Shown here piece by piece: positions 1 through 22,895 of a stretch of DNA of 22,895 nt. The notes beneath the pieces were generated by a model. It saw only the letters and a program-made list of their open reading frames with translations. It made no database searches and was not told the origin of the DNA. The position numbers were made by a program, and so were the translations under genes. Source of the stretch: Candidatus Undinarchaeota archaeon (GTDB taxonomy: Archaea; SpSt-1190; JASMDC01); the NCBI GenBank assembly GCA_964519305.1, contig CAZFHY010000020.1, positions 58,666 to 81,560 of the forward strand, given 5' to 3'. Every line of letters starts with the position of its first letter. The first letter of the stretch is position 1.

Positions 1-1
1 G

Positions 2-3263: not shown

Positions 3264-3278
3264 TTTAAACAGGTTTGG
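3264..3278 (-). promoter_or_regulatory. Putative BRE/TATA promoter for a leaderless nfo transcript
   Basis: Minus strand CCAAACCTG-TTTAAA, with the first T 29 nt upstream of the ATG at 3240. The TATA overlaps the TAA stop of the upstream gene. Confidence 0.55.
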
Positions 3279-4818: not shown

Positions 4819-4862
4819 GGACATCACCAATCTTTAAAGCTGTTCGAGTCGCGGGCGGTATC

Positions 4863-5558: not shown

Positions 5559-5573
5559 TCAATTAAGCCTGGT

Positions 5574-6182: not shown

Positions 6183-6186
6183 GCCT

Positions 6187-7080: not shown

Positions 7081-7086
7081 GTCGGC

Positions 7087-7116
7087 TGGTCATTTGACCA
7101 AAGGTTTTAAGGCTTC
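7087..7116 (-). promoter_or_regulatory. pdxST promoter (BRE/TATA) with a palindromic operator-like site
   Basis: Minus strand GAAGCC-TTAAAA, 30 nt upstream of ATG 7080. Perfect inverted repeat TGGTCA-TT-TGACCA at 7087-7100, between the TATA and the start. Confidence 0.6.
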
Positions 7117-7137
7117 TCGTGAGGGCCGATGGGCCCA

Positions 7138-7767
7138 TCATCCACGTTTCAGCTGTACCAGAAGGGCTGGCAGCTTGGACACATTCTCGATAATATGGTC
7201 GGCACCGGCGCCCTCCAGATCCTCGCGCGAAGCATAGCCCGAGAGCACTCCGATTGTCGTGATCCCGGCGTTGCGCCCGGCCAGGATGTCGAGGGTACTG
7301 TCCCCCACCATCACAGCAGGTCCGCCGCCCAGAGCGCCGATGATCAGCTCGACGCCGTCGGCGAGCGGTTTTGGCGGTGCGTCCTCTCGTGTGATGACCG
7401 TCTCGAAGAAGGTGCGGAGGTCCAGCCGCTCGAGGCAGCGGTCCACAGCAGGACGGCAGTTACGGGAGAGGACGGCCATGCGCAGGCCACGGTAGCGGAG
7501 CTCCTCCAGCGCCCCCCGCGTACCAGGGATCGGGCTCGCGTTGTCCGCAGCGGCCACCTCCGTCTCCTCGAGCCGCGCATGGAGCGTTCGGCCGAGCTCG
7601 GGATCGCCCAGTGCAGCAGCACCCAGTGCGATCTTCTCCACTATACCGAACTCATCGGACACGTCCACGCCACGCTCGGTGAAGATGGTGTCTATCTCGC
7701 GCTTTATACCGTCCAGGTTCAATCGTCCAGCGGTGAGCGTTCCGTCGAGGTCGAAGATGACTATCAA
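7138..7767 (-). CDS. HAD-superfamily hydrolase (phosphoglycolate phosphatase-like, C1 cap)
   Basis: Motif I FDLDGTL, motif II VLSRN, motif III PKP and motif IV VGDSTLDI. TTG start preceded by a GGTGAG SD. Confidence 0.9.
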   Translation of the reverse strand: MIVIFDLDGTLTAGRLNLDGIKREIDTIFTERGVDVSDEFGIVEKIALGAAALGDPELGRTLHARLEETEVAAADNASPIPGTRGALEELRYRGLRMAVLSRNCRPAVDRCLERLDLRTFFETVITREDAPPKPLADGVELIIGALGGGPAVMVGDSTLDILAGRNAGITTIGVLSGYASREDLEGAGADHIIENVSKLPALLVQLKRG

Positions 7768-7791
7768 GAGGACCGCTCACCACAACGGAGC

Positions 7792-7804
7792 TTATAACGG
7801 TTTT
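7792..7804 (-). promoter_or_regulatory. Putative BRE/TATA promoter of the HAD gene
   Basis: Minus strand AAAACCG-TTATAA, 30 nt upstream of TTG 7767. Confidence 0.55.
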
Positions 7805-7806
7805 GT

Positions 7807-8535
7807 TCAGTACCGCCCGTACACGTTCGCGTACCCGCCGCGGCCCGCGTAGTACGAGCTCCCCTGGTAGGCGGGGTACTGGTACCCGTAATAGCCGGCC
7901 TGGGCCATGGCGGTAGCTTGTTGCTGCTGCTGGAGAGCCGCCTGCTGTGCGATCGCCCTGCTCCTGGTGAAGAGCGCCAGACCCATGATGAGGACTATGA
8001 TGACCAGCACGATCCCGATGAGGAAGCTCATACTGGAACCTCCCCCGTCGTCCGTGCCACCGCCCGCCGTGGCGGTTGCCGTCGCGGTCGCGGTCCCGCT
8101 GGCCTCGGGACCTTCGGACGGTTCCGCGCTCGCCGTCGCCCCTTCGGCAACGCAGTCCTTCACGACGATGACTATCTCGCGTTTAACGGTGAACTGGGGC
8201 GAAATCGCAGGATAGGCCACGAGGGGGAGCGAGTACCGGCCCGGATCTAGTCCGAGGGGTGGTGTTAGATCGTACCGATGGTCCACGTACTCGGCTGCAC
8301 CCAAGGACACCTTGTAAGGGTTCTTCTTCTGGTAGAGTCCATGGGGATCATCGAGCTTGACAACGAAGATGGCAGGGTCCTTGAGGAGGCTCTCGTACTT
8401 GGCAACGACGCTGATCGTTTCTCCCCGACACCCCGACTGCTCGGGATTCTCAACAACGAGATTGAGGATCTCGAGGGAGGATCCCATGACGAGGAGGAGC
8501 GCAAGCACGACTGATCCCATCCTCTTCATCGACAT
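7807..8535 (-). CDS. Hypothetical single-pass membrane protein (signal peptide, Ig-like domain, Thr/Ala linker, TM, Gln/Tyr/Gly-rich tail)
   Basis: I placed the start at ATG 8535 (MSMKRMGSVVLALLLVMGSS, AAGGGGG SD upstream) rather than the track's 8592, which runs through a TATA box. Beta-rich domain with PGRYSL, linker GTATATATATAGGG, TM FLIGIVLVIIVLIMGLALF, tail QQQQQ...YYGYQYPAYQGSSYYAGRGGYANVYGRY. Confidence 0.75.
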   Translation of the reverse strand: MSMKRMGSVVLALLLVMGSSLEILNLVVENPEQSGCRGETISVVAKYESLLKDPAIFVVKLDDPHGLYQKKNPYKVSLGAAEYVDHRYDLTPPLGLDPGRYSLPLVAYPAISPQFTVKREIVIVVKDCVAEGATASAEPSEGPEASGTATATATATAGGGTDDGGGSSMSFLIGIVLVIIVLIMGLALFTRSRAIAQQAALQQQQQATAMAQAGYYGYQYPAYQGSSYYAGRGGYANVYGRY

Positions 8536-8574
8536 AGGAGCATTCCCCCTTATAGGTTGTGATAATGGAGTGTT

Positions 8575-8622
8575 GAAACTATAAATAGACACAGGCGGCT
8601 CGCCGTGAAACCTATTTAAACG
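8575..8622. promoter_or_regulatory. Divergent promoter region (two TATA boxes)
   Basis: Minus strand TTTATA at 8585-8580 for the leftward gene. Plus strand GAAACC-TATTTAAA at 8607-8620, about 31 nt before GTG 8646. Confidence 0.55.
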
Positions 8623-8645
8623 AAGTAAGCCACTCCAAATGCCCA

Positions 8646-9644
8646 GTGTACTCCCGGGTCCGTCTCGTCGGCGTCCTTCTTCTTATAGCGCTCACGCTCC
8701 CCTGTATTGCTGTTGGGAAGGAGGGCCGCGTCTATGATGCGTACAAGATGCGTATCGACGTGATGCCGAACGGCACATGTCGGGAGACCATCGACATCCA
8801 TCTTCGCAATACCGGCGACGAGCCGCTCCGCAACGCCTTCTTCACGGTAGTCCGTGACGTCCAGGATATCGAGGTCACCGGTATCGGCGAGGACATCTCA
8901 TGGACCGTCGCCGAGAACGAGTGGATCAAGCTCGTGAACATAACCTTCACCTATCCCGTGCTCCCGGACAAGGACCGTCATTATACCATCTCATTCACAA
9001 CCGATCAGTTCGTACGGCGGGAAAAGGACGACCTTGAGTTCCGAACGACCTATAATCCGTCAACGCCCATCACGGACTTCAGTCTCACCGTATCGCTCCC
9101 GTCCGGTTATGTCCTTCCCGTGGGCGGGATGGCGGCTCAGACGCATTCCGTTCTGTTCCCGCCAGCAGAGCTCAAGACCGACGGACAGCACCTTCTCCTC
9201 GTATGGAGCCGTACCAACGTTACTGCTGATGACAGCATTGGTGTGTTCGCCCGGTTCACACGCCCGAAGGAAGAGGTCAAAGAGGCATGCTATCCCATCA
9301 CCCCTCAAGGTATCGCGGTCGGTATCCTCCTTGGAGGGGTACTGTTCTTCTTTGGTAGATGGGCCACACAGAAACGGCCCTCCGTCCTATCTGTTTTCAC
9401 AGAGGACGAGCAGGCGGTCGTCGAGGTCTTGATACACGCCGGTGGGCGACTCAAACAGCGCGACCTGCTGGTAAAGCTCGACATCTCCAAGTCCAAGCTC
9501 AGTCGTCTTGTCATGGACCTCGAGTCACGGGGCGTGCTCCGCAAGGAGCGCATGGGCAACACGAACCGCCTCGTCCTCCGCGATGACCTCAAGCGCGCAC
9601 GGATCGATAAGAAGGAACATGAAGCGACCGATGTCGGTTCCTGA
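8646..9644 (+). CDS. Membrane-anchored winged-HTH regulator (COG2512-like: signal peptide, extracellular beta domain, TM, cytoplasmic HTH)
   Basis: N-terminal hydrophobic signal, beta-rich region, TM GIAVGILLGGVLFFFG, then TEDEQAVVEVL...GGRLKQRDL...ISKSKLSRLVMDLESRGVLRKERMGNTNRLVL, which is typical of archaeal membrane-associated HTH proteins. Confidence 0.85.
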   Translation: MYSRVRLVGVLLLIALTLPCIAVGKEGRVYDAYKMRIDVMPNGTCRETIDIHLRNTGDEPLRNAFFTVVRDVQDIEVTGIGEDISWTVAENEWIKLVNITFTYPVLPDKDRHYTISFTTDQFVRREKDDLEFRTTYNPSTPITDFSLTVSLPSGYVLPVGGMAAQTHSVLFPPAELKTDGQHLLLVWSRTNVTADDSIGVFARFTRPKEEVKEACYPITPQGIAVGILLGGVLFFFGRWATQKRPSVLSVFTEDEQAVVEVLIHAGGRLKQRDLLVKLDISKSKLSRLVMDLESRGVLRKERMGNTNRLVLRDDLKRARIDKKEHEATDVGS

Positions 9645-9658
9645 AAGCTATTTAATAC
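9644..9658 (+). promoter_or_regulatory. Putative BRE/TATA promoter for the 9690-14689 gene pair
   Basis: GAAAGC-TATTTAATA directly at and after the HTH gene stop. The spacing favours ATG 9690 (GAGGT SD) over 9672. Confidence 0.5.
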
Positions 9659-9689
9659 TTGGAGCCCGTAGATGCGTAGAGGTAGTGAT

Positions 9690-12600
9690 ATGAGTAGACA
9701 CGGTCTGCTGGTGTTCCGCGGTGCTACTGCACTGCTCCTCACACTCCTCTGTCTCGCCTCAGGATACAAAGGTTACCTCGTCGCGGACAGTATCCTTGAA
9801 TCGGTGGAGGTGCTAAATTTCAAGCACGCCATCATCTCTGTGGATTACGACATGAGCCCGTCGCCCGGATACGTGGACGAGCTCGATGAGCTGGCGCTCC
9901 AGACGCGCTTTGATTTGTTCGACCATACCTACTCGACGATCACGAAACAGGAGGAACTGGTGAGGTTCACCATGGGAGAGGTACCCCGTATCAGTTTCAA
10001 TACGTTCACGATCGAAGGAGAGAGCCTTGAGGTCGAGTTCACGCTCCACTACCGGCCAAAACAGTTCGACCTCATCCCTGGTGTGTTCACCTACGGCAGG
10101 AAGCTGCGTATCACATATCCTTCTCTCTATACATTACGGGTGGCCAACGTCACAGATCTCACACTGGAATCGAACTTCACCCTGGCAGGGCGCTTGGTGG
10201 ACATGGAGGCCTTCGCCCTAAAGTCGTCCGATCAGGGCGACCACATCGTTGGTGACACAATCGGCATCGAGAAGATAGGTGAGGTTTCCGGTAGCCTCAA
10301 GTTCTGCATCGCGGCACTCACGGAACGAGGAGATGACCGACCGGTCGCCAAGGCCTTTGGATCGTCCTGCGAGAAGCTCGTGATCCCCACCGATGGTTCC
10401 ATGGACGCCGTTCTCTATGATCTCCATATAATCGGCGTTCGCGGTGACGCCATGGGATATATCAAACAGGAGTTCAGGCTGGCCGAACCCCCCCTGGCGA
10501 TACGTCTCGTACCAGAGCGGACATCCGTCCGTCTCGGGACCGGTCTCGCACTGGACGTCCACCCGGCACAGCCTTTGGAAGGATGCACGGTGAACGTCTA
10601 TGATTCGTTCTGGACCAAGAAGAACACCCTGGACCTCCAGACATGCACGAACGTGGTCGTGGGTACGTCCACATCGTGGGCGCCCGGCACTTACCTCGTG
10701 GAAGTAGAGGGCTATCACCAGGGACTTGTCGGCCGTGCTACCGCCCGTTTCGAACTGATCGGGGTCGGCGGAATTATGCCCGCGGACACGAAGACCGACA
10801 AGGATGTGTACAAGGCGGGCGAGGATGTCTCACTCTATACTGACGCCCCGGGCGATATCTGCAGCGTCCAGGTTTTCAACCAAGACGGTATCAAAGTGAT
10901 GGAGGAGGAGTCGCTCGGATGTGGCAATGCCGAGCTAAGCCTCGATCCATCGCTCGATCCGGGGGCCTACACGATCCAGACCACGGCATACCGCGACAAT
11001 CAGAACGTCGGCGGTTCGGTTAACATGATCGAGGTTTCGGAGTGGCGACCCCAGCTCCGCACACCGCAGTCAGAAGTGTGCGAGGGCGGTTCCATGCATG
11101 TTCTCGGCGCCACCCTCCCGTGCATCCAAACAGGACAGACCTGCACTCCTTCATCCTCCGACATCCCACTTTGCCTCTGCTTCGATAAGGAGACAGGTGA
11201 CGTCCTTGACGTGTGCGAATACGGAAGATACTGTAGCCCTACCGATTGCACCGAGCAGCGTATCAAGAGCCCGTTCATCATCATCGAGACCGATGGAGAG
11301 TGCATGGCCAAGAGCGGTCTCCAGACGCTCTCATGCATCGACATCGGTGAGGTATGCATGGGTACCTGCGTCTGCCTCGGCAAGGATAAGAATCCCGAGG
11401 CCACCTGCGTTATCGGTGAGATGTGCGCCACTGAAGGATGTGCCCCGTCCAACCTCGAGTTCTCGCTCATCGATCTCGAACCCCGTCATATCAGATCGGA
11501 CGTGCTCCTGACGGATGGGGTTAACGTCATATGGCGCGGGAACATCAGGTACGAGGGGGCGCTTCTCGAGGAGGGAGCTCTCGCTGACCTCAATGTGAAC
11601 GCGTCACTCCACGTACTGGATGCCTCCAGTGCACCCACCATCAAGCGTGTGCACGACGATCAGGCCGGTGGCTGGACGATCGAGGCATCCTTCATAGCGG
11701 ACCTGCCTCCCGGAGAGTACGAGGTCTTCATCGTGATCGAGTACAAGGGCAACATCCATGTCATTCGTCGACCGTTCGAGGTATGGTACCCCGAGGACGA
11801 GTCGTTCCTGCGTGTGAGCCAGCACGATATCGAACCTGACAAGGTGCGTCCCAAAGACTTCGAGATCGGTTTCCCTCTACAAACCGATGTGGTCGTCCAG
11901 GATCTCAACGGAAGGTCCGTGGTGAACCTACCCAAGAAAGCCTTCAACATCACTTTCGGAGAGCTCGCACCCGCAAGCTTCACACCGACGTACAACAAGC
12001 TATCGGACCGCTGGCAGCTGTCGACGACGTTCATGGACACGCTCCTCTTCACCTGGGATGATGTACCTGGCCCAGACAATGGAAAAGTGCGGAGCTATCT
12101 GCGACGCACGTTCGGTGAGGACTGGATGGAGCATGCCGATATCTCCAAGAGCAGTGATGAACGGACCATCACCATGGCATCCGGTAACGATTGGCTCGAG
12201 TTCGCCCTGGACGGGAACAATATCAAGGCCACGGTCCGGACGGACGACGGAGAGGGCCATGAGCTTGCCGTCCGTGAAGAGATGGATCGCCTGATCGTAT
12301 ACACCGCACTTCCTACCGAACAAGCCATCTCCGTAGCGATCGAGCACCTCGGGCGCAGCGGGAACTCGAAGGAGCCAATCGAGGTGACGGACTACGTTCC
12401 ACTCGACTTCAGGATACAGCGAGCTAGTCCGGGTAACGACAATGAGCCGCTCATCCATTATCTGGCCGTGATGGGCTTCAATCTCGACATATTCCTTCAG
12501 ATCAAGGGGACCATCGATGTCTCCGAACGTAACTTCCATGTGTTCATCGGGGAACGGAACGTTACAGAGAACCTGGCCTATCTTGTCAGCACGACATCAG

Positions 12601-12770
12601 GTGTCAGGCTGCATCTTTCTGACATCTCTCTATGCCCTCATCCACCGAACGGCGGTAGCACGGTGGAGCTGCTCGTTGAGATCCATACCCCACAAGGAGT
12701 CATCGAATCGAAGCGGACGGACCTCCAAGTGAAGTCCAATCCCGGTCGATACGTGGTGGGATGCACATGA
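9690..12770 (+). CDS. Large secreted multidomain surface protein (~1026 aa; Ig/MG2-like domains, two Cys modules, inserted domain)
   Basis: Signal peptide (ATALLLTLLCLASG). Ig/MG2-like motifs TDKDVYKAGE, PGTYLVEV, PGAYTIQT and PPGEYEV. Duplicated Cys module at 11079-11441. No C-terminal TM. Confidence 0.8.
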   Translation: MSRHGLLVFRGATALLLTLLCLASGYKGYLVADSILESVEVLNFKHAIISVDYDMSPSPGYVDELDELALQTRFDLFDHTYSTITKQEELVRFTMGEVPRISFNTFTIEGESLEVEFTLHYRPKQFDLIPGVFTYGRKLRITYPSLYTLRVANVTDLTLESNFTLAGRLVDMEAFALKSSDQGDHIVGDTIGIEKIGEVSGSLKFCIAALTERGDDRPVAKAFGSSCEKLVIPTDGSMDAVLYDLHIIGVRGDAMGYIKQEFRLAEPPLAIRLVPERTSVRLGTGLALDVHPAQPLEGCTVNVYDSFWTKKNTLDLQTCTNVVVGTSTSWAPGTYLVEVEGYHQGLVGRATARFELIGVGGIMPADTKTDKDVYKAGEDVSLYTDAPGDICSVQVFNQDGIKVMEEESLGCGNAELSLDPSLDPGAYTIQTTAYRDNQNVGGSVNMIEVSEWRPQLRTPQSEVCEGGSMHVLGATLPCIQTGQTCTPSSSDIPLCLCFDKETGDVLDVCEYGRYCSPTDCTEQRIKSPFIIIETDGECMAKSGLQTLSCIDIGEVCMGTCVCLGKDKNPEATCVIGEMCATEGCAPSNLEFSLIDLEPRHIRSDVLLTDGVNVIWRGNIRYEGALLEEGALADLNVNASLHVLDASSAPTIKRVHDDQAGGWTIEASFIADLPPGEYEVFIVIEYKGNIHVIRRPFEVWYPEDESFLRVSQHDIEPDKVRPKDFEIGFPLQTDVVVQDLNGRSVVNLPKKAFNITFGELAPASFTPTYNKLSDRWQLSTTFMDTLLFTWDDVPGPDNGKVRSYLRRTFGEDWMEHADISKSSDERTITMASGNDWLEFALDGNNIKATVRTDDGEGHELAVREEMDRLIVYTALPTEQAISVAIEHLGRSGNSKEPIEVTDYVPLDFRIQRASPGNDNEPLIHYLAVMGFNLDIFLQIKGTIDVSERNFHVFIGERNVTENLAYLVSTTSGVRLHLSDISLCPHPPNGGSTVELLVEIHTPQGVIESKRTDLQVKSNPGRYVVGCT

Positions 12771-14689
12771 GCCGAAAAATGACACGAGGACAGATTGCCC
12801 TCTTTGGCATCATGGCCTTGGCTTTCGTGGTCATCTTCGTGCTCTATACGATGTTCTCTGGACAGAAGACGGAATCGGAGGTACGTCGACAGGAGATACA
12901 ATCGGAAACGGTCCGCAAGGAGCTCGAGTCCGTGCAGTCCTCTCTGGAGCGCTTCCTCGAAGCCGCTATCCACGAGGCAGCGGAGGAGATGGCCGCGCAC
13001 GGAGGTTATACCAAGGAGAACCATCCGCCGCTCAGCCATCTGGGCGTCCCCTACTGGTTCTATGAGGGGAATATCGTTAACATCCCGACAAACAAGGTCA
13101 TGGAACAGATGATGGTACAGGAGATCGAGCGCAATGTCAAGGACCGTGTCCTTGAACTGCAGAAGAGCCTGCGCAGGGACCTCTATTCCTTCGGGTTCCC
13201 AAAGGCGAACGTCACCCTCCTGGACAACTCAATCACGGCACGAATGAGCCTTCCGGTCCGCATCAGAGCAGAGGGTGAGGAAGTCAAGACCGATATCGAT
13301 TTCGATGTCAACGTACCGCTCCGGCTCAAGTTCCTGCACGACATCGCAGTATTCTATGTTCAGAGCTATATCGATGCCCGGACCATGGAGGACTCAATCT
13401 TCGACAGCATCACTTCAGACCCGCGCATCCCCAAACCGGGAGGTGACTGCTGTAAGGGCATCCCCTCATGCGATGCAGATGCCCGATACGAGATTAGTGT
13501 GATATCGACCGATGGGAATCCCCTCTCAAAGCATGGGGACCTCATCGAACCGTTCCGTGAGCATTCCCGACTGGCCGTGGCTAACGAGATGCGTCGTGTA
13601 AGGAAGGCCGACTTCAGTCCGGTTGAGACGTTCACCGGGATGGAACAAGCGGATATCGAGAAGGTCATGGAGTTCGTGGAGTGGACCTTCGACCTGTATG
13701 AGAACGAGTTCAAGTTCTCCTTCATCGCCAATGAGGACAAGCCTGATTACCGGTCCACCGACACAGTGCACTTCTTCAGGCTCGGACCCTTCGGCCTGTC
13801 ACCTTCGGGCGATTGTACGGGCGGGTACAAGATGAACTATTCCATCCACTTCCCCGTAAAGATCATCCTTCGTGATCTCCTGCCTTCTGCAAAAGTGGTC
13901 GGCGCCGCCGGGACATCGTCCGAGATCAAGCCACTGGAGTTCAAGTTCTACATGGAACCATATCTACAGAAACTGTCCGCAGCGACAAACGAGTCGGTCT
14001 CAGCACCCAAGTTCATCGAGGACCAGTGTCAGGGCGCCTGCGCCCTTACAGTGGACCTCGACCCCCCTGCGATGGAAGGGTTGCTCCGGATCGACTCCTG
14101 TCGCTATCCTTCTAACGATGTTGAAATGAGCTATTCCTCGGGAACTACCTGGGAGGGAGTCCCATGCGGCGTCCATGACATCGTGTTCGAGGCAGACGGG
14201 ACCGAGTACGCGAGATCGAGCCTGAAAGAGAAGATCGAGGCTTCAAGTCATGTCACCCTCCCCGTACGTAAGTTCGGCTCCATTTCGAGCCGTGTGATCA
14301 TGAAGAACTACGTCTACTGTGTGTCATCTCAGACAATTGATGAACGGGAACCGATACCTCTCGGCTATGTCGATGGGAGACCGCCGGCGTACATCGAAGT
14401 GTACCTCTTCCCCATGGACACTACCCTTGGGGACGTCGTCAGTGCAATAACCGACGAGGACGGAAAGATCGAATTCCCAACCGTGAACCCCGGTAAGTAC
14501 CTACTGCTCGCGGTCTCGTCCAAGGATAGCTCGGACCGCGCCATCTACTCGGTCCTTCCGAAGGGCATGATCCTCGATGTGGACGAGGGTACGAGCTCGC
14601 TCCCGGACATCGCGATGAAACCAATCACGGTGGAGCTCGACCGGAACGGGATATACCACAATGTAGCATCCCGTGATGAGAACTGTTGA
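12767..14689 (+). CDS. Class III (pilin-type) signal peptide protein, ~640 aa
   Basis: ATGA overlap with the upstream stop. MSRKMTRG/QIALFGIMALAFVVIFVLY fits the archaeal prepilin-peptidase pattern. Followed by a helical stalk, GGY...VPYW.YEG...IPT...ME, and a C-terminal prealbumin/carboxypeptidase-regulatory-like segment (TDEDGKIEF..VNPGKYLL). Confidence 0.75.
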   Translation: MSRKMTRGQIALFGIMALAFVVIFVLYTMFSGQKTESEVRRQEIQSETVRKELESVQSSLERFLEAAIHEAAEEMAAHGGYTKENHPPLSHLGVPYWFYEGNIVNIPTNKVMEQMMVQEIERNVKDRVLELQKSLRRDLYSFGFPKANVTLLDNSITARMSLPVRIRAEGEEVKTDIDFDVNVPLRLKFLHDIAVFYVQSYIDARTMEDSIFDSITSDPRIPKPGGDCCKGIPSCDADARYEISVISTDGNPLSKHGDLIEPFREHSRLAVANEMRRVRKADFSPVETFTGMEQADIEKVMEFVEWTFDLYENEFKFSFIANEDKPDYRSTDTVHFFRLGPFGLSPSGDCTGGYKMNYSIHFPVKIILRDLLPSAKVVGAAGTSSEIKPLEFKFYMEPYLQKLSAATNESVSAPKFIEDQCQGACALTVDLDPPAMEGLLRIDSCRYPSNDVEMSYSSGTTWEGVPCGVHDIVFEADGTEYARSSLKEKIEASSHVTLPVRKFGSISSRVIMKNYVYCVSSQTIDEREPIPLGYVDGRPPAYIEVYLFPMDTTLGDVVSAITDEDGKIEFPTVNPGKYLLLAVSSKDSSDRAIYSVLPKGMILDVDEGTSSLPDIAMKPITVELDRNGIYHNVASRDENC

Positions 14690-14873
14690 AACGGATATAT
14701 TTCCGCCTATTTGTACAATAGAGCAATAATTTTATTATTGGGACGACTTGGGACAACTTCCGCCTGATTAATGGGGCGAGCAATCTGAATGAACTATCGT
14801 GGCCCGTTGTCCCAAGCCGTTGCGAGAAATCGTTTTAAACGCCATAAGCAGAGTATATTACAGGGGTTTATCA
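14690..14873 (+). promoter_or_regulatory. AT-rich regulatory region upstream of the giant gene
   Basis: GAAATCG-TTTTAAA (TATA at 14833-14839), an AGGGGT SD before ATG 14874, inverted repeat CAATAAT-TTT-ATTATTG, and direct repeats (see findings). Confidence 0.55.
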
Positions 14874-17800
14874 ATGGGATTCAGTACCAATCGAACAAGA
14901 CATACCTACGCACTATTCATGGCGTTCGTGCTCTGTGCGCTTCTCACATTGGCGACGAGCACCGCAGAGGACGACATGGGTGCGTTCATTTGTGAAGAGA
15001 CAATCGAAGACACGCATCTGAGTATCTTCTGCTATCATACGGAGACCGCCTCTACGATCGGTATCTTCGTCAAGGTGGACGACGCATTTATCGCGGATTT
15101 CCTTTGCGATAAATCCAAGTTAACGTCCGACGAGACTCCAGAAGCGGATTATTGCTGGAGTTCCACGATCGGGAGAGCCACCGTAAAGATACCATTCACT
15201 GCGTACGACGGTAAGCTCGGTAAGCTGAAACTATTTGGCGACCGTGCGGGGAACGCCCCCGACTCTTCCTTGAGCAATCTCAAGACCTATTCATTCGATA
15301 TTACGAAACCAGAGGAAACTGCGGAAGAAGAGGAGACAACCCCTGAATCCCCGACACCCCCGCAGAACATTGAAGCCTATACGAGCAGGTGCACGGACAA
15401 GGTCTTCATCGGTAAGGAATTCACCTATACGTCCGGTAATCCCACTGAAAGGGAAAGAGCAAAGGAGGAAGCCCTTCAATATGCCAGGGACCACTGCCCC
15501 GACTACTGCAAGAAGGGACGACTGGCGGTTTTCGATTACGGGACCGATCCCCCCTACTTCAAGGGACTTCAGGCCTGCTACGACCCCCGTATCTGGGAAC
15601 CCGCTGGCGGCATTGACAGGGACGACTCGAAGGGGACGGATGACGCGGCCCTCGCCGAGGTCAGTGCAAAAGAGATAGAGAGTTGTAAGGCTCTATGCGA
15701 GCAGGTCTATTCAGACAAGGCTGCTACATTGTTCACGCCTTTGATCATGAACTTCCAGCGAAAGGAGGATGTCAACGGCCCCATCAGGTTCGGGTGCTTG
15801 TGCCAGTTCCGATCATGCTCCTGCTGTCACATCCCCGGTAACGATAACTACCCCTATCGCTGGGTCAAGGATGTGGGCACATGCACCGGGGACACTTCAA
15901 ATAAATACGGCCCCGGCCACACCGTCGATCCCAATCTCTGTACGGACGCACCTTTCCACGAGGATAATGAAGGGACATGCGCATTGCCCCGTGCTGTGAA
16001 GCCCGACTGTCTCCACTGCTGCAACAAGGGGACCTCGGATGATCCTGTGTACGACTGGTTGCCTACATCATGTGCTGCAGATGGGTACACGGATGCCGCA
16101 TCCAGGATGGACTGCTGCGAGACCCAATCCAGTGACGGTCTGTCGTGCACCACGTGGAAAGATGCCTCGGGATGCAACGTCATCGAGGATCCTGACACCT
16201 ACACCCTCAAAGGGAAGGTATGTTGCAGGGCCCACGGTGACACCTATGCATGGCTGGACATCGATCCGGACGCCGGTATCACCTGCCCGCTATCGGAACG
16301 GGCTGCAGATCAATCATTATGTGGTCCCAGTGACGACAGTATGGCGTGCTGTGTGCTCAGGAAGGACGACAACACGGCCGATTTCCAATTAATGAGCCGA
16401 GAGGAATGCGCTACCAAGCTCGAGGGCGAGACGGGGGTCATGTTCTCCTCGGAGTACTGTGAGCTAGACATCACGGGTACATGTCAGGGTGACCAGGACC
16501 TGCCGAAGGTCTATCTAGCGGCCATTTATGCCGACGACTGCAAGGACGGCTCTGACGAGCGCAAGATAGAGTGTTATCAGGGTGGATCCGGTTCTACCTG
16601 CGAGACAGTTGAGGGTCAGAACCTCGCCTCCAAGGTGGATCCCGACGAGAAGGCCGAGCTCCGCATCACAGGTGGTAAGAAGGATGATAACGATTGTCAG
16701 GTCACGCTGGTCATGAGCTTGACCGAGCCATCAGATAATGCGGTCCCGGAGTCAGGTATCTGCGATGGTGCCCGCACGTTCGGTGGACACTGTTACAAGA
16801 TGACCGATAAGCTGGAATGGCCCGCTGCGAAATCGAAGTGCGAGGCGTGGAACGCTCATCTCGTGACCATCGACGATGCGCTGGAGAACGAGTTCATCAA
16901 GAAGACGTTCGCTGAGAACCTCTGGATCGGTTACAATGACCGTGAGCAAGAAGGGCGATATGTCTGGACTACGGATCCGGCGACCGGTGACCTACCCGCA
17001 GTCTGTAGCGACGGCTACTTCTACAATGGTCACTGCTACAAACCCATATCGAACACCGATTGGGACGACGCAAAGACCACGTGCGAAGCATGGGGTGGTT
17101 ACCTCGCGACCATCGAGGATGCGGACGAGAACAAGTATATCATGGACCAGTTCAATCAATATACATACAAGTGGATCGGCCTGAACGACAAGACCACTGA
17201 GGGCACATGGGCATGGTCACACGGTGCATCAGATTATCGGAACTGGAAGAACGGCGAACCGAACGACCATGATGGCAACGAAGACTGCATTGAGTTAAAG
17301 GGAGCGGGCAAGTGGAACGACGCGAAGTGCACGAACAAGCATGGTGCGATCTGCGAGTCCGACGGACCCCCGAACACGAACAGGCTCTATTCGAACTGGA
17401 ACAATCACGAGCCGAACAACTGGGGACGCAACGAGGACTGTAGCCAGATCTATACCTCCGGTCTCTGGAACGACAACAATTGCGACCATGATTTCAAGGC
17501 TCTCTGCGAGTCGGAGGATGGTGGTGATCCCGGCTATGTCCTGCGGGTGTTCTTCGCGAACGAAGATGTGAAGGCCGATCAGTACGATGTCGATCCATAC
17601 ACCATGACGATCGCCTATCTCAGGCTCCTGGAGCACCGGCCATCCGCGGAGAAAGGATGCCTCGGGTGCAAGGTCAAGCATGTATACGATGGCGGATTCA
17701 GCGATCCGAACGATGATGATACGACCACCAATGGTATGAAGTATGAAGTGTGCATCTCACCGGATCCCGATCTAACCAGTGGTTGTGACAGGGATGCCTG

Positions 17801-20800
17801 TATCACGCAACTCGAGGGCTTCCTTGGTGATGAGCTCATCAGTATCGAAGCTGGAGCCGCGGACAACCTCAGGATATTCAAGGTCAAGAGCTCGATCCTT
17901 AAAATCGGCGAATGTTCCTTGGACCAGGACGTCATTGGCGAGGATATAGACCACATCACGATAACTGACTATGAAGGTGATGCCGAGCAGAAGACGATCG
18001 CCAACAGGCTCGACAAGATCAAGTGCAAAGAGGGTGGCATCCCGGCCAAGAACAACTTCGCGGACTACCTCAAGGAAGTGAAGACCTTCCAGGAAGGTGC
18101 CCACGAGTTCTACACCGACCTGCACGCCAACCTCATCACGATGCTGGACGCTCTGGAGAAGCAGTGCGACTCATGCAACACTGCGCTCACGGATTTCCTT
18201 GGCACTGGTTACACTGCCTCTGAGAGCACGGGGCAGCAGCAAATCCCCTCGGGTGTTAAGATCAATATCGACGATGTGGAGATCGAGTTCACCTTCGGCA
18301 CGGCCGTCGACCTGGACGACCTGCCAGACAAGGACTCCGAGGACAACGACTTCAACTGCAAGACGGCATTGAAGAACAAGGGCTATCAGAACTTAGTGTT
18401 CTTCCGGACCAAGAACACGAACGATGTCAAGGGATACATGAACAAGAGCAGTACATCAATTCACATCGACCTTGCTCCGGGTGGCACTGATTCGGGCGTC
18501 GCTTCAACCGGTTGCGACTTCACGCGTGACTCCTATGCCTGGATCACATCCGATCCCCCCAGTAGCACCTCCACAGATGTCCCGTCGGTCTGCAGCCCCG
18601 GTGAGTTCTGTGCATGCGATGCGGACCTCGGTCTGGAGACCTATATCACAGAGGACTTCGTAGCCAGTGACGCGTTCGGCCCCGGACTCTGTCATAGGGG
18701 CGTCCAGGAGATCTGCCTAAAGGACAGCCTGACCTTTTGCCCCGCACGGGAAAGCGATATCACGGCCCGAAGTGAGGAGCTAGCCACTGCGATGGGATGC
18801 CCCGTCTGCATCCAGATACCGTGCGTTGCAGGAGTGAAAGTATGGGATGGAAATACAGGCAGCTTGACCTGTGATTCGAACGAGATGAACGAGGAGGACG
18901 ACGGTACAGAAGGGAGTTGTTGTGACACTGATGCTACCGATCCTGACAAGTACGTCTGTTCAGCGCCCGCTGTACCTGACGCGTCCAAGGACCTTGGGTA
19001 CGCAGGAGCGACGAGCAACTGCGCCCTCCCGACCGTTACCGATGACTGTCGTAAGTGCACAAATCCCTGTGACGACGGCTGCTGCGGCTACTGCACCAAC
19101 GATGAGACCGATACGAAGTCCGGTGTGCTCGAGGTCAAGTACCGCACCAACGTCGCCATCGTTCCCGCCAAGCTCGTGGAATGTCAGCAGCAGGTCTCCG
19201 ACCTCAAGGACCTGTGCACGGTTGACGGCGCCGAGGACCTGTACGACGGGATCAAGGCCGGCCCGTGTCGCACGCGGGACACCGTCCAGAACGTCGTCAC
19301 CACGCTCAAGAGCCTCATGGACAAGCTTGCGGAGGGGATCGTCGCCATCGACGCCCTCATCGTGGAGTACGACGGATCCACGACAGAGGATGGGAACGTA
19401 GTGAGCGATAAACTCTCTACCCTGAATGAAAAAATTTCCGATATCGCTAACACCGGCGCATCCGATTTGTTCCGCAAGAACCTCAAGAACTCGGTCGCCA
19501 TGGTCGACAGGATCATCACGGACACTGATGACAAGAACGAGCAGGGTACGGTGACACAGTACCAGGGCATCGAGTCGATCGGGGCAGGGACCGCGGACTG
19601 GAAGTTCAAGGACGAATGCCCCGGCATCATCGACCGGTACCTAGAGCTCGGCTACTCGGGCGACTGTGCTTACAAACCCAAATACCATCTGCCCGAGGAG
19701 CGCGACGCGCTAATCGAACCGTTCTATGAGAATGTACTACAGTACCTCACTGGCCAGCCTGCGAGTTCAGGCCCTCAGCCCTATGCCCGGGACTCCCGGT
19801 GCATCATCGACAGCACCATCACCAGCGACAAGCCGATCGGCCGGTGCGAGATGGGCGGAACCGAGGACAAGACCATCGACGACCAGCAGTTCGATGACTG
19901 GGGCACGAAGCAGGACACTGCGCTGAGCAAGCTCAACGCTATCGACTCTTCGACCACACCAATCCAAGACAACACGCTCCTCTACGAGATCCACCAGTCG
20001 TGCATGTCCTATACGACGACGGGCGGTCAGACCATCACACCTGACACGGACGACGACGTCGATACCGACACGGACACCGACACGGATACTGATACGGACA
20101 CAGATACGGATACGGACACCACCACGATGGGTGTCGGCCAAGGGTGCAACAGGAACAGCGACTGCCCCTCGGGCAACTGTATTAACAGCATCTGTTGCGC
20201 GAACGGTAAGTACTGCTGTCTTTTCGACAGTCAATGCTCGATGTTCGGTACCGACGCCAAGTGCGATTCGAACACATTCTACTGTCGTATGACCGTCGGT
20301 GGCAGTGCATGTCCGTGCGCCGCGAAGATGGACGATGGTGGCGACTGTGACAATAACGATGAGTGCAAGAGCTCGAACTGTAGGAACAACATCTGCTGCA
20401 AGCGTCACGAGCAGTGCTGCGATGGCCCGCAACACTGCGCGACGTCCTCCGGACGGATATGTGGTGGGGATAACTACTGTATAACCGATCCGGACTACAT
20501 CGAGGACGGTTCCTTAGACAACGGTGATCCTTGCACGGACCCGAACCACTGCTTCAGCCGTAACTGCAAGAACGGTATTTGTTGCTCGACCCTCGGTGTA
20601 TGCTGCTCGTCGAACTCCCACTGCCTCGAGAACCTGGGCGAGGTGTGCGACCAGTCGCTCCATTTCTGCATCACTCCCGAACCGACGCCTCCTGAAGAGG
20701 ACCCGAGCACCGATGAGTACTGCGCTGCGTTCTGTCGCAACTCGTGCGATCCCAGCTACAGCGAAGGCCGGTGCCATGTAGAGCTCGGGTACTGCGTCTG

Positions 20801-22763
20801 CAACATAGGTTTCGGGTGGAAGGGTACGAGCCAGAAGTGCGATCCTCCAGAACTGCCCGCTGACGTGAAGAACAAGATGCTCGCGTGCTGCAACAACCTC
20901 TTTGACTTCGATCCTGACACGCCGGGCCTGCCGATCTTCGATGTCCCATCCAATCCATCGTGCGCAAGCGCCGGGGTCTTCGGTGATGGGAAGGTGCACT
21001 TCGACAAGTGCAGATCCAAGTACTCGGAGCTGAACAATTACTGCTGTTTCCAGGGCGAGAGGGAACTACCGCTCACCGAGAAGTGCTACAACATGGACCA
21101 GTACGCGACATGCAGAAGGGCCTGTCAGGACATCTACCCGTCGAACGTGGACGCGTGCGAGACCGCATGCAAGGAAGCGAACATCGACTGCGAGAAGGCC
21201 TGCCTCGAACCGCCCATCCCACAGGACACTGCAACCCGCCTCAAGTGCATGAAGGGCGGGATCACCAGCATGCCTGATTGTGGGGCCAACGATAAGGTGT
21301 ACAATAAGATAATCGGGTGCTTCCAACGTAGCCCCAGCACGTATTCCTTCGACGAGAACGTCAAGTGCGCACAAGCCATGAAAGGGATGCTACCGCGGTT
21401 CACCATATCGAAACTGGGGGTCTACAAGGACGATATCGCCCAGACCACGGTCTATGGCGGTGACGTGGCGGCCGTGAAGGCCGACATCACCAATGCGGGC
21501 GCTCTGTTCTTCAGTGGACGGGTCACGTTCGGAGTGATCGTACTGCCACCATGTCCCGAAGAAGGATGCAACGAGGAGGACTACATCGAGTACTTCACCC
21601 TCGGTACGAACCCGATGGACAACACGATCGACCTCCTCCCTGCGGCCACGGTCGCTCTGGAGAGCGAGCCATTCGACATTGATCCGTCCTGGATAGGTAA
21701 CGAGATATGGGTCATACTGGGCGTTCGTGACATTTCAGGTGCCATCGGTGATTATGACTCGGCGACGGGCGTCAAAGTGCTCAAGATGGGCGTCATCGCA
21801 CCAACGGATGCGTTCTTCAACGATGAGCGGATCATCACAGCTTACCCGTTCCAGGAAGTGACCGGTCACGTGAAGCTCGTGTCCGAGTACTTCCCGCTCA
21901 AGGCCGAGGTCTACCTGACCGACACGAACAACCGCGAGATCGAGGGCACTCGTGTAGCGCACGAGTTCTCGGCCAAGATCTCGGATGAGGTCATCATAAA
22001 GACCAATGCGTTCACGGTGCCCAAAGAGTACGCCTACTTCGGCAACATCCTGCGCATCGGGTTCGAGGCCTTCGACAAGGAAGACCAGCTCGTGGCAAAG
22101 TCCATCCTCTCCACACCGGTGATCTGCGAGACATGTCCGGAAGACTACATCAACGTCCAGATGCAGTATCCCGACGCCTACCTGAAGGTCGAGAACCCAG
22201 AGCTCAAGGTGACCAGCGCGAACTTCATCGACGCGGACGGCGAGCACATCCCAGCGACAGGTCTCTACCAGAGACGGGACGTCAGGGCCCAGGTCACGGT
22301 GCGCAACTCTGTGGACGTGGTCTTCGATGGGACCGTGAAGGTGACCGTACTGGACGAGTCGGGGACCGCGATAACGGCCACCACAGCGGACCTCAAGGAC
22401 AATACGCTGGCCAAGGACGGCAAGTACACGATCACGACCGACGCCTTCCTTGCCGAGGAGGGACACTCGTACAAGACTCTGGTGCACGCGATCGCGGACG
22501 ATGTGGACTGGTTCAAGCGGCAGCTGTCGCGGATCACCTATCCGTACGCGGTGCTGGACGTCCAGGACCTATCCACTGTTCAGGGTGAGGGTCCCAAGGA
22601 CTACACCATCACCTATGCACTGGGGACCTGTGTGCTGCGTGTTGAGTGCACCGCTTGTCTGCCCACCTGCGAGATCCTGGTGGACCAGCCGACGTGCACG
22701 TTCCGCTCAGAGGGCGTGTGCGATCCGCCCGGCGGCACCTGCTCCTGCATAGCGGCAGCGTAA
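14874..22763 (+). CDS. Giant secreted Cys-rich protein with C-type lectin domains (~2629 aa), putative adhesin
   Basis: Uninterrupted 7.9-kb ORF. ATG 14874 gives a signal peptide (RTRHTYALFMAFVLCALLTLATSTA); the track start at GTG 14799 lies upstream of the TATA. Contains CTLD motifs (GHCY, WIG, EPN, WND), a DT tract, Cys repeats and C-terminal beta-sandwich-like domains. Confidence 0.9.
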   Translation: MGFSTNRTRHTYALFMAFVLCALLTLATSTAEDDMGAFICEETIEDTHLSIFCYHTETASTIGIFVKVDDAFIADFLCDKSKLTSDETPEADYCWSSTIGRATVKIPFTAYDGKLGKLKLFGDRAGNAPDSSLSNLKTYSFDITKPEETAEEEETTPESPTPPQNIEAYTSRCTDKVFIGKEFTYTSGNPTERERAKEEALQYARDHCPDYCKKGRLAVFDYGTDPPYFKGLQACYDPRIWEPAGGIDRDDSKGTDDAALAEVSAKEIESCKALCEQVYSDKAATLFTPLIMNFQRKEDVNGPIRFGCLCQFRSCSCCHIPGNDNYPYRWVKDVGTCTGDTSNKYGPGHTVDPNLCTDAPFHEDNEGTCALPRAVKPDCLHCCNKGTSDDPVYDWLPTSCAADGYTDAASRMDCCETQSSDGLSCTTWKDASGCNVIEDPDTYTLKGKVCCRAHGDTYAWLDIDPDAGITCPLSERAADQSLCGPSDDSMACCVLRKDDNTADFQLMSREECATKLEGETGVMFSSEYCELDITGTCQGDQDLPKVYLAAIYADDCKDGSDERKIECYQGGSGSTCETVEGQNLASKVDPDEKAELRITGGKKDDNDCQVTLVMSLTEPSDNAVPESGICDGARTFGGHCYKMTDKLEWPAAKSKCEAWNAHLVTIDDALENEFIKKTFAENLWIGYNDREQEGRYVWTTDPATGDLPAVCSDGYFYNGHCYKPISNTDWDDAKTTCEAWGGYLATIEDADENKYIMDQFNQYTYKWIGLNDKTTEGTWAWSHGASDYRNWKNGEPNDHDGNEDCIELKGAGKWNDAKCTNKHGAICESDGPPNTNRLYSNWNNHEPNNWGRNEDCSQIYTSGLWNDNNCDHDFKALCESEDGGDPGYVLRVFFANEDVKADQYDVDPYTMTIAYLRLLEHRPSAEKGCLGCKVKHVYDGGFSDPNDDDTTTNGMKYEVCISPDPDLTSGCDRDACITQLEGFLGDELISIEAGAADNLRIFKVKSSILKIGECSLDQDVIGEDIDHITITDYEGDAEQKTIANRLDKIKCKEGGIPAKNNFADYLKEVKTFQEGAHEFYTDLHANLITMLDALEKQCDSCNTALTDFLGTGYTASESTGQQQIPSGVKINIDDVEIEFTFGTAVDLDDLPDKDSEDNDFNCKTALKNKGYQNLVFFRTKNTNDVKGYMNKSSTSIHIDLAPGGTDSGVASTGCDFTRDSYAWITSDPPSSTSTDVPSVCSPGEFCACDADLGLETYITEDFVASDAFGPGLCHRGVQEICLKDSLTFCPARESDITARSEELATAMGCPVCIQIPCVAGVKVWDGNTGSLTCDSNEMNEEDDGTEGSCCDTDATDPDKYVCSAPAVPDASKDLGYAGATSNCALPTVTDDCRKCTNPCDDGCCGYCTNDETDTKSGVLEVKYRTNVAIVPAKLVECQQQVSDLKDLCTVDGAEDLYDGIKAGPCRTRDTVQNVVTTLKSLMDKLAEGIVAIDALIVEYDGSTTEDGNVVSDKLSTLNEKISDIANTGASDLFRKNLKNSVAMVDRIITDTDDKNEQGTVTQYQGIESIGAGTADWKFKDECPGIIDRYLELGYSGDCAYKPKYHLPEERDALIEPFYENVLQYLTGQPASSGPQPYARDSRCIIDSTITSDKPIGRCEMGGTEDKTIDDQQFDDWGTKQDTALSKLNAIDSSTTPIQDNTLLYEIHQSCMSYTTTGGQTITPDTDDDVDTDTDTDTDTDTDTDTDTDTTTMGVGQGCNRNSDCPSGNCINSICCANGKYCCLFDSQCSMFGTDAKCDSNTFYCRMTVGGSACPCAAKMDDGGDCDNNDECKSSNCRNNICCKRHEQCCDGPQHCATSSGRICGGDNYCITDPDYIEDGSLDNGDPCTDPNHCFSRNCKNGICCSTLGVCCSSNSHCLENLGEVCDQSLHFCITPEPTPPEEDPSTDEYCAAFCRNSCDPSYSEGRCHVELGYCVCNIGFGWKGTSQKCDPPELPADVKNKMLACCNNLFDFDPDTPGLPIFDVPSNPSCASAGVFGDGKVHFDKCRSKYSELNNYCCFQGERELPLTEKCYNMDQYATCRRACQDIYPSNVDACETACKEANIDCEKACLEPPIPQDTATRLKCMKGGITSMPDCGANDKVYNKIIGCFQRSPSTYSFDENVKCAQAMKGMLPRFTISKLGVYKDDIAQTTVYGGDVAAVKADITNAGALFFSGRVTFGVIVLPPCPEEGCNEEDYIEYFTLGTNPMDNTIDLLPAATVALESEPFDIDPSWIGNEIWVILGVRDISGAIGDYDSATGVKVLKMGVIAPTDAFFNDERIITAYPFQEVTGHVKLVSEYFPLKAEVYLTDTNNREIEGTRVAHEFSAKISDEVIIKTNAFTVPKEYAYFGNILRIGFEAFDKEDQLVAKSILSTPVICETCPEDYINVQMQYPDAYLKVENPELKVTSANFIDADGEHIPATGLYQRRDVRAQVTVRNSVDVVFDGTVKVTVLDESGTAITATTADLKDNTLAKDGKYTITTDAFLAEEGHSYKTLVHAIADDVDWFKRQLSRITYPYAVLDVQDLSTVQGEGPKDYTITYALGTCVLRVECTACLPTCEILVDQPTCTFRSEGVCDPPGGTCSCIAAA
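16761..17510 (+). other. Two C-type lectin domains, one nested in the other
   Basis: Outer N-half at 16761-16976, complete inner CTLD at 17004-17357, outer C-half at 17388-17510. Confidence 0.9.
20061..20120 (+). repeat. (Asp-Thr)10 coding microsatellite (GAYACN)
   Basis: Ten hexamers GAY-ACN with varied third codon positions. Confidence 0.95.
20145..20669 (+). repeat. Three 10-Cys protein repeats
   Basis: Pattern C-x5-C-x4-C-x4-CC-x5-CC-x5-C-x7/8-C-x5/6-C occurs three times (CNRNSDCPSGNC..., CDNNDECKSSNC..., CTDPNHCFSRNC...). Confidence 0.9.
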
Positions 22764-22788
22764 GAAAGGGGTCATATGAAGGGGGTTC

Positions 22789-22821
22789 CCTCCGGGCGGG
22801 CCGACAGGGCCCGTCCGGGGG
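22789..22821 (+). terminator. GC-rich stem-loop downstream of the giant gene (terminator or 3' stability element)
   Basis: CCTCCGGGCGGGCC-GACAG-GGCCCGTCCGGGGG forms a 14-bp stem with two G-U pairs, 25 nt after the stop. There is no U-tract on the plus strand. Confidence 0.4.
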
Positions 22822-22895
22822 ATGACAATAAATAGTTCTCGGTACAGAGCGAGTCCGAGAAGTGCCCGTCCATGCCGGGTGTTGAGCGCACCCCA

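Follow-up and report, generated by a model that had tools for sequence, protein, structure and literature searches.

A giant gene at the end of an archaeal contig

The stretch of DNA considered here, hereafter the window, comprises 22,895 nucleotides (nt) from the genome of a Candidatus Undinarchaeota archaeon (GenBank assembly GCA_964519305.1, contig CAZFHY010000020.1, positions 58,666 to 81,560 of the forward strand) and forms the terminal 22.9 kb of a contig of 81.6 kb. A long open frame, 14799..22763 on the forward strand (as are all window features below unless stated otherwise), holds a giant gene of 2,629 codons plus a stop (14874..22763), beginning at an ATG at 14874 whose methionine is the start shared by the orthologues in their alignment. 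From its N-terminus, the 2,629-amino acid (aa) product is composed of a predicted signal peptide, a series of cysteine repeats, two C-type lectin-like domains (CTLDs), one of them inserted in the other, blocks shared with paralogous giants, and a large C-terminal module; the gene is preceded by those of a secreted protein and of a pilin-like protein. A preliminary description, drawn from the letters of the DNA, had presented this product as a giant archaeal secreted protein and a heavily disulfide-bonded adhesin; as an observation it is confirmed, nearly every feature listed standing, and as an interpretation it is partly supported.

The genome (G000) spans 3.63 Mb in 42 contigs, is 99.8% complete by estimate and carries an archaeal small-subunit (SSU) rRNA (1,508 bits). 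The genomes of the genus, namely this one and a second (G001), measure 3.6-3.8 Mb, against 0.6-1.2 Mb in the 15 genomes of the same class that were searched. Exceptional genomes of ~4 Mb, possibly of free-living organisms, have been described among the otherwise small DPANN metagenome-assembled genomes (MAGs) of archaea from oxygen-deficient zones (PMC10936187).

Since the stop codon lies 132 nt short of the contig end, a chimera was a concern, hence three tests bearing on assembly, synteny and selection. The stretch is present in eight public runs from two studies, all possibly sources of this very DNA and labelled marine or seawater metagenomes, of which four were examined. In three of these four, one independently assembled contig (16.9-22.6 kb) extends over 12000-22870 with zero mismatch and zero gap, and in the fourth the stretch is tiled by three contigs. 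The contig end is explained by a branching of the assemblies, at 22841-22847, into an element of 1,682 bp and approximately ten-fold depth; this element (window 22841-22895) is probably a multi-copy repeat or an insertion sequence. In a second species, window 4873-22843 has its counterpart in a named record of 229 kb (L005), with 81-84% of aligned nucleotides identical and a synteny over 18 kb that includes pdxS/pdxT; the full-length orthologue of the giant sits there mid-contig with 10 kb more downstream. Compared with this orthologue, the ratio of non-synonymous to synonymous substitutions (dN/dS) is 0.05-0.32, with dS of 0.3-1.7, in 18/18 windows of 150 codons. As spanning contigs, a mid-contig syntenic copy and low dN/dS along the full length concur, the gene is neither a chimera nor a misassembly, and both the gene and the purifying selection acting on it are real.

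Across this part of the window the G+C content drops from 0.63 to 0.53-0.59. The G+C content at third codon positions (GC3) of the gene, 0.729, is close to the genome median of 0.746 (41st percentile among 1,553 long open reading frames, ORFs), and the drop thus reflects the Asp/Thr/Asn-rich composition of the protein rather than a foreign origin; a horizontal-transfer island was rejected on the same ground. The archaeal attribution holds on the SSU rRNA, the typical GC3 and the synteny with an archaeal MAG. Three orthologues are 76, 64, and 50% identical overall, the closest being annotated as a "C-type lectin domain-containing protein" of a Candidatus Undinarchaeales archaeon.

Nested C-type lectin domains

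Against the Pfam profile Lectin_C (PF00059), the protein scores 126.1 bits for a cut-off of 22.6, in three pieces each above that cut-off (84.8, 38.5, and 33.1 bits), which follow one another along the chain in the order of profile positions 2-60, 3-106, and 61-106. The first piece is the N-terminal half of an outer CTLD (residues 630-701, 16761..16976), the second a complete inner CTLD (residues 711-828, 17004..17357; 84.8 bits) and the third the C-terminal half of the outer one (residues 832-879, 17367..17510). A segment search of the protein against itself likewise relates each outer half to its inner counterpart, i.e., 617-699 to 700-782 and 802-830 to 853-881, and the three-piece pattern recurs in G001. 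As such, the nesting already proposed in the preliminary description is confirmed, at the level of sequence, by the profile order as well as by self-similarity.

Each domain displays a framework of six cysteines of predicted pairing, namely C630/640/656/856/870/878 in the outer and C711/721/737/805/819/827 in the inner CTLD, invariant in 4/4 orthologues, as well as WIG motifs (WIGY and WIGL). The site residues are E795-P-N (EPN at 795-797), E803 and N815-D816 in the inner domain, and E846-P-N (EPN at 846-848), E854 and W865-N-D (WND at 865-867) in the outer one; all are invariant in 4/4 orthologues save W814. We take the combination of EPN, Glu and (W)ND to be, as in animal lectins, the calcium site for sugars with mannose-type hydroxyls. 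With this signature kept by both lectin domains in 4/4 orthologues, the designation of the protein as an adhesin is plausible as far as sequence goes.

The best solved relatives in the PDB are sugar-binding carbohydrate-recognition domains (CRDs) of animals, i.e., those of DC-SIGNR, CD23, mannose-binding protein A and the mannose-receptor family, with single-CRD matches reaching E ~1e-19. Among the few sequences compared, the inner CTLD has its closest match (41% identity) in a protein of 680 aa from another small archaeal genome, followed by the outer CTLD half of the giant itself (39%); a word-based search for homologues of the lectin fragment, in which 81 candidates were scored, gave four matches, too few for a domain phylogeny. 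Lectin_C is infrequent in archaea, occurring in 5/301 genomes searched, G000 and G001 included, and within G000 in the giant gene of the window only. In another small archaeal genome (G059), partial Lectin_C matches were observed at C1:271287-271466 and C1:382993-383334, one of them inside a frame of 8,891 aa, as well as a second Lectin_C pair ordered C-terminal half then N-terminal half within a frame of 905 aa. A narrow search of the C-type lectin literature found no nested CTLD.

A family of giants sharing a C-terminal module

When the last ~330 residues of the protein were compared with 41 genomes, matches were confined to G000 (22) and G001 (20), the 39 other archaeal genomes giving 0, and every match lay inside a giant open frame. 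The giants of G000 correspond to 22 ORFs of 1,067-2,846 aa with 3.6-9.8% cysteine, which together take up 3.5% of the genome, the 21 paralogues being scattered over 11 other contigs. By eye, 17/22 have a signal-peptide-like start; the last 14 residues contain CxCxC in 16/22 and at least CxC in 20/22. The similarity of the window giant to its paralogues extends from residue ~1950 to the end and further comprises three internal blocks, namely block 1 (residues ~1057-1113, 18042..18212), block 2 (residues ~1256-1326, 18639..18851), which exhibits a cysteine cluster and a hydrophobic CPVCIQIPCVAGV stretch, and block 3 (residues ~1394-1540, 19053..19493). The hydrophobic stretch, located at 18780-18836 (residues 1303-1321), is 19 residues long, contains three cysteines around its CPVCIQIPCVAGV core and is nearly invariant in the orthologues. 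Against 1.84 billion representatives, a profile of the module retrieved 57 proteins, 32 of them at E<=3e-17; the weaker matches are mostly repeated and cover the sandwich positions only. Judged by these similarities, the giants are a narrow family without a name, limited to one genus among the genomes searched.

The C-terminal module (residues ~1950-2629, 20721..22760), delimited by paralogue matches, profile and model, comprises a candidate EGF (epidermal growth factor)-like unit, a cysteine-stapled helical part, three beta-sandwiches (residues 2176-2304, 2308-2412, and 2436-2564) and a terminal domain with eight cysteines (residues 2575-2629). Modelled with AlphaFold2 (AF2) from 22 sequences, the C-terminal 690 residues give a mean pLDDT (the confidence score of the model) of 77. 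The fold matches of this model reach Z-scores of 11.4 to 5axg, 11.1 to 8f9l and 8.7 to the CARDB domain 3idu, and those returned by Foldseek are generic immunoglobulin (Ig)-like, CARDB-like and adhesin-repeat domains, including the ice adhesin (5irb, 4p99) and PrgB; such searches are dominated by the beta-sandwich domains, not by the helical cysteine-rich part or the terminal domain. Over residues 2170-2629, no Pfam family, CARDB or Ig included, matches at E<=1. Of the three Ig/CARDB-like domains put forward in the preliminary description, the beta-sandwich fold thus stands in the model and the sequence profile does not; here, the beta-sandwich is a generic fold without functional meaning. A PDB sequence search with the module profile found no solved relative.

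The last ~330 residues are nearly invariant, even in the 50%-identical orthologue, and the last 55 make up a cysteine-rich beta domain ending in TCSCIAAA. With its CxC ending, this domain may resemble the cystine-knot domains through which mucins and von Willebrand factor dimerise. A hydrophobicity scan revealed no membrane helix beyond the signal peptide, at the C-terminus or elsewhere, and neither a PGF-CTERM-like sorting signal nor a C-terminal hydrophobic helix was found. The cysteine-rich C-terminus had been described as having no anchor; while this is correct for a membrane anchor, it needs revising otherwise: the C-terminal ~680 aa form a module that 22 paralogous giants have in common.

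The inserted domains, or payloads, vary from one giant to another. Of 20 paralogues scanned, NlpC/P60 was found in four and Peptidase_M23 in three, i.e., in five proteins together, one of them with an additional weak match to glucosaminidase; among the others, one exhibits FG-GAP repeats, one a sub-threshold match only and 13 no recognisable payload. Likewise, 27 family members from the database gave M23 in three, NlpC/P60 in two, a C39-like peptidase in one, FG-GAP in one and nothing in 21. No Mur-ligase match was obtained in the 99.8% complete G000, where 12/14 control genomes were positive, and the hydrolases are therefore unlikely to act on a wall of the archaeon itself. In another paralogous giant of 2,629 aa (G000 C1:22075-29964), a domain resembling p642, the pilin-like neighbour described below, is fused in the N-terminal part (~345-759).

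Cysteines, small modules and oxidative folding

The Sec-type signal peptide (residues 1-31, 14874..14966) was recognised from a basic N-terminus followed by hydrophobic residues 13-31, its boundary being a prediction. Out of 159 cysteines, 158 come after residue 31, and 148 of these 158 are invariant in the three orthologues, against 883/2,296 non-cysteine columns; four of the ten non-invariant ones are due solely to a truncated gene call. With invariance far above that of the other columns, the cysteines bear the signature of structural disulfides, and their even number in the mature protein, together with their conservation across orthologues of 50-76% identity, supports the view of a heavily disulfide-bonded protein, which would imply ~79 disulfides.

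Upstream of the lectins, four CC..[YF]x[WL]..C units span residues 317-512 (15822..16409), with pattern matches at 317, 382, 450, and 492; the pattern occurred in 0/2,000 shuffles, a control biased by the pattern having been taken from the same sequence. Downstream, a (DT)10 linker (residues 1730-1749, 20061..20120), found by pattern match, precedes three repeats of ~62 aa with ten cysteines each (residues 1755-1940, 20136..20693), recognised by segment self-similarity and pattern, and CxxxC motifs lie at 2080, 2095, and 2106. A single C-x-C-x2-G-F-x8-C at 1974-1989 agrees with the EGF signature C-x-C-x2-[GP]-[FYW]-x4-8-C of PROSITE, and short hairpins are modelled there at pLDDT 73-84; Pfam EGF has no match at E<=1 over residues 1727-2029. 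Searched by segment, Pfam (E<=1) and NCBIfam returned Lectin_C alone and nothing for the cysteine units, (DT)10, the repeats or the CxxxC motifs, and the protein atlas yielded no usable match for residues 1040-1740. The eukaryote-like mosaic of the preliminary description is as such overstated: it holds for the CTLDs and, at the level of a motif, for one EGF-like unit, whereas everything else is without a match in Pfam or NCBIfam and belongs to a lineage-specific family.

It had also been proposed that such a protein would need a strong oxidative folding system. In G000, large proteins with one N-terminal membrane helix contain DsbA-type domains arranged in tandem; domain matches delimit three such single-helix-anchored proteins of unusual size, in frames of 626-824 aa at C18:66986-69298, C9:94073-95950, and C3:80478-82949. 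Two of the DsbA-like proteins each contain a pair of CPFC sites, and a single CPYC is present in a third. DsbA-like domains are present in 24/41 genomes, with the most in G000 (6) and G001 (9) against 0-4 elsewhere, and DsbD/CcdA-type proteins gave two matches in the genome, where no match was found for VKOR and DsbB. With the oxidoreductases present and no re-oxidising partner found, this expectation is half borne out. A membrane-anchored protein of ~700 aa with two thioredoxin-like (VSR_TRX/DsbA) domains exhibits CPFG instead of CxxC (L005 19772-21871, reverse strand; G000 C4:1844-3943), and in L005 it is separated by ~2 kb from the orthologue of the giant, which lies upstream of it.

Neighbouring genes and the p1032-p642 pair

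Directly upstream of the giant lies p642 (642 aa, 12761..14689), characterised by paralogue and motif comparison as having a type-IV-pilin-like (class III) N-terminus, and before it p1032 (1,032 aa, 9672..12770), a secreted protein and the first member of a pair that recurs in the genome. Preceding both, at 8646..9644, Pfam and hydrophobicity indicate a membrane-tethered winged-helix regulator with a DUF2207-like ectodomain, a second transmembrane helix and a DUF7343 helix-turn-helix domain. G000 contains ~20 copies of each of p1032 and p642, forming 19 adjacent pairs, and 13/22 giants adjoin such a pair. Single-sequence queries for p642 and p1032 gave matches in just two of the 41 genomes, G000 and G001. 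The p642 orthologues are 92, 89, and 74% identical, and their longest contigs equal in length those of the three orthologues of the giant, which suggests, without proving it, a linkage conserved in four genomes.

By eye, 16 of the 21 p642 N-termini listed begin with R-[GA]-Q followed by ~20 hydrophobic residues, which we take to be a class III, i.e., type IV pilin-like, signal with its predicted cleavage. The genome gives four matches to prepilin peptidase (Peptidase_A24) and six to T2SSE ATPase above the cut-off, one of the latter 3 kb upstream of a p1032-p642 pair. For the eight p642 copies that adjoin a giant, pairwise identities run parallel to those of the adjoining giant C-termini (Mantel r 0.86 between the two matrices, reached in 3/5,000 permutations). 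In Pfam and NCBIfam, p642 has only sub-cut-off CarboxypepD_reg-like and protocatechuate dioxygenase matches; the protein atlas offers for it only feature-level look-alikes among DPANN clusters, with recognition below the mark, and a PDB sequence search found no relative of p1032.

Further upstream, window 1-2409 is occupied by a 5'-open ORF of 802 aa made mostly of 126-nt (42-aa) tandem repeats, with sub-threshold tape-measure and minor-tail matches, and akin repeats stand just upstream on the contig. On the reverse strand, 3265-4830 encodes a protein of 521 aa with six predicted membrane helices, a weak DUF6044 match and >20 paralogous matches genome-wide.

Relation to known systems

With the animal CRDs, namely those of DC-SIGN/DC-SIGNR, CD23, mannose-binding protein A and the mannose-receptor family, the giant shares the long-form six-cysteine CTLD, WIG, EPN and (W)ND. 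It differs from them in that one complete CTLD lies inside another, within an archaeal protein of 2,629 aa whose other modules are otherwise unrecognised, and in that sugar binding is predicted. With giant modular adhesins, e.g., the ice-binding RTX (repeats-in-toxin) adhesin of Marinomonas, the SPEARE proteins of DPANN archaea and halomucin, it has in common the large size, Ig-like stalks and ligand-binding modules. RTX adhesins are secreted by the type I system and are poor in cysteine, whereas the giants are predicted to be Sec-exported, contain 3.6-9.8% cysteine and possess a C-terminal module of their own. While the giant modular adhesin is a kind already known from SPEARE proteins and halomucin (PMC6642349), the SPEARE proteins, proposed as host-attachment factors of DPANN archaea in the same source, possess a membrane helix, a cytoplasmic part of type III restriction-enzyme kind and LamG, none of which is present in the giant (Lectin_C only in Pfam, no helix).

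The paralogues further resemble the peptidoglycan hydrolases that some archaea secrete (Strock et al., 2025, PMC12352652) in having M23, NlpC/P60, a weak glucosaminidase match and no Mur-ligase match in the genome, although the giant of the window carries lectins and no hydrolase; archaeal hydrolases of that kind were shown experimentally to kill bacteria (PMC12352652). A term search of that source, within the text available, gave no occurrence of Undinarchaeota, giant proteins, NlpC or C-type lectins. Finally, the giant, as a predicted surface protein of a DPANN-related archaeon, has a ligand-binding domain of lectin fold in common with the variable proteins of diversity-generating retroelements (DGRs) in DPANN archaea. 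The latter are of the formylglycine-generating enzyme (FGE)-type CLec subclass and require a reverse transcriptase (RT) and a template repeat (PMC7443923), whereas the giant has canonical Lectin_C domains, no RT and no repeat pair. A DGR variable protein was accordingly rejected as an identity for the giant, with no RVT_1 match in G000 and no direct repeat of at least 35 nt inside the gene.

Narrow literature searches found nothing that links Undinarchaeota to C-type lectins, and only unrelated papers, as far as their text was available, on giant cysteine-rich extracellular proteins of archaea; in the portions of DPANN literature examined, C-type lectins are mentioned solely with regard to the fold that DGR variable proteins adopt. 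Within the compass of such searches, three things appear undescribed, namely the family of giants with its shared scaffold, a canonical lectin in nested form and the association with a pilin-like partner.

Proposed function and alternatives

The gene and the selection on it, the two lectins with their motifs, the family with its payloads, the p1032-p642 pair and the genes of DsbA-like proteins are taken as established. The reading preferred here, to which a probability of about 0.5 is assigned, is that of a surface-displayed, calcium-dependent glycan adhesin that would serve as an arm of a modular apparatus, with bacteria as the probable target. The giant would be exported via Sec and its cysteines oxidised by the membrane-anchored tandem DsbA-like proteins. 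A chassis made of the three internal blocks and the ~680-aa C-terminal module would bear exchangeable payloads, i.e., lectins here and, in paralogues, peptidoglycan hydrolases, FG-GAP repeats or unrecognised domains. The C-terminal module would hold the giant on the cell surface, possibly by binding the co-inherited pilin-like p642 and the secreted p1032. The working part would be the CTLD pair, one inserted in a loop of the other and each with a predicted site of the mannose/N-acetylglucosamine/fucose type (EPN). Placed distally, this pair would bind glycans of another cell, most likely a bacterium, beside the sister giants that would cut peptidoglycan. Surface retention, orientation, partners, sugar specificity and target organism are thus what we infer from the features described.

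Several points weigh against this reading. In the giant, there is neither a membrane helix nor a recognised sorting signal or known wall-binding domain. Nine of the 22 giants are not beside a p1032-p642 pair, and the correlated matrices show that giant and p642 duplicated as a unit, i.e., linkage rather than contact. With 13/20 paralogues devoid of a recognisable payload, the aim at bacteria comes down to five proteins. The meaning that EPN and WND have in animal lectins may not transfer to an archaeal protein, and the AF2 model of residues 600-1750, from an alignment of four sequences, has a mean pLDDT of 34.5 and is unusable both for the nested fold and for the helical segments of the preliminary description (residues 1050-1720). 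As to folding, the genome has no VKOR or DsbB match, and a named relative comes from anoxic water (PMC10936187).

Several of the same observations would fit a giant that is released rather than cell-bound, as a diffusible, bacteriocin-like family for targeting and lysis in which the lectins aim at a glycan of the prey and the C-terminal module serves export, oligomerisation or action on the envelope of the target. The lack of an anchor of known kind, the peptidoglycan hydrolases among the paralogues, the documented killing of bacteria by secreted archaeal peptidoglycan hydrolases (PMC12352652) and the hydrophobic cysteine-bearing stretch at 1303-1321, which could touch membranes, speak for such a factor. 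It is nonetheless unlikely, since sizes of 1,067-2,846 aa and three stalk-like beta-sandwiches resemble those of surface adhesins, the giants are tightly linked to, and co-duplicated with, a pilin-like, membrane-inserted protein, and the near invariance of the C-terminus points to a docking partner that is conserved.

The sheer scale of the family, i.e., 22 giants over 3.5% of the genome with ~20 copies each of p1032 and p642, as well as the acidic, calcium-binding-like composition and the Ig-like stalks of the protein of the window, would suit a structural role in which giants, p1032 and p642 build the coat of the cell or an intercellular matrix, the lectins binding self glycans and the hydrolases remodelling the matrix. 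Coat proteins, however, are usually few and highly uniform whereas the giants differ in payload; NlpC/P60 and M23 are families specific for peptidoglycan in a genome with no Mur-ligase match, and the family is restricted to one genus, so that this role is deemed improbable, a little more so than release.

Lastly, an artefact or foreign gene, be it a chimera, a contaminant contig or a viral or mobile-element gene for a receptor-binding protein or a DGR-diversified lectin, is very improbable and largely excluded, for although the gene ends 132 nt from the contig end, the G+C content drops, the first ORF of the window has sub-threshold tape-measure-like matches and DPANN proteins of C-type lectin fold are known DGR targets (PMC7443923), there are spanning contigs in 3/4 runs, a high-depth repeat at the contig end, pdxS/pdxT synteny in a second species, native GC3, no RT match in the genome, no DNA repeat pair in the gene and 21 paralogues on 11 other contigs.

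Significance

How archaea seize or attack other cells is little known, and the locus offers a concrete and testable apparatus in this respect. It unites a nested canonical lectin of animal type with sister proteins bearing hydrolases, on a shared scaffold that belongs to no named family. The nested lectin is in itself of structural interest, as a natural insertion of a domain within a domain conserved in orthologues down to 50% identity. The protein further poses a folding puzzle, with ~79 disulfides implied, DsbA-like proteins but no DsbB or VKOR match, and a relative from anoxic water.

On a bolder view, which is speculative and rather doubtful as a whole, the genome would encode a three-part surface arsenal of ~60 genes, in which a pilin-like protein and its secreted partner mount interchangeable, disulfide-locked arms, the lectins seizing cells and the hydrolases opening them, in an archaeon that hunts or farms bacteria by contact and folds these proteins oxidatively in oxygen-poor water, through DsbA without a known DsbB or VKOR oxidant. 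If true, this view would mean a contact-dependent, bacteria-hunting or bacteria-farming lifestyle in a large-genome relative of the tiny DPANN archaea.

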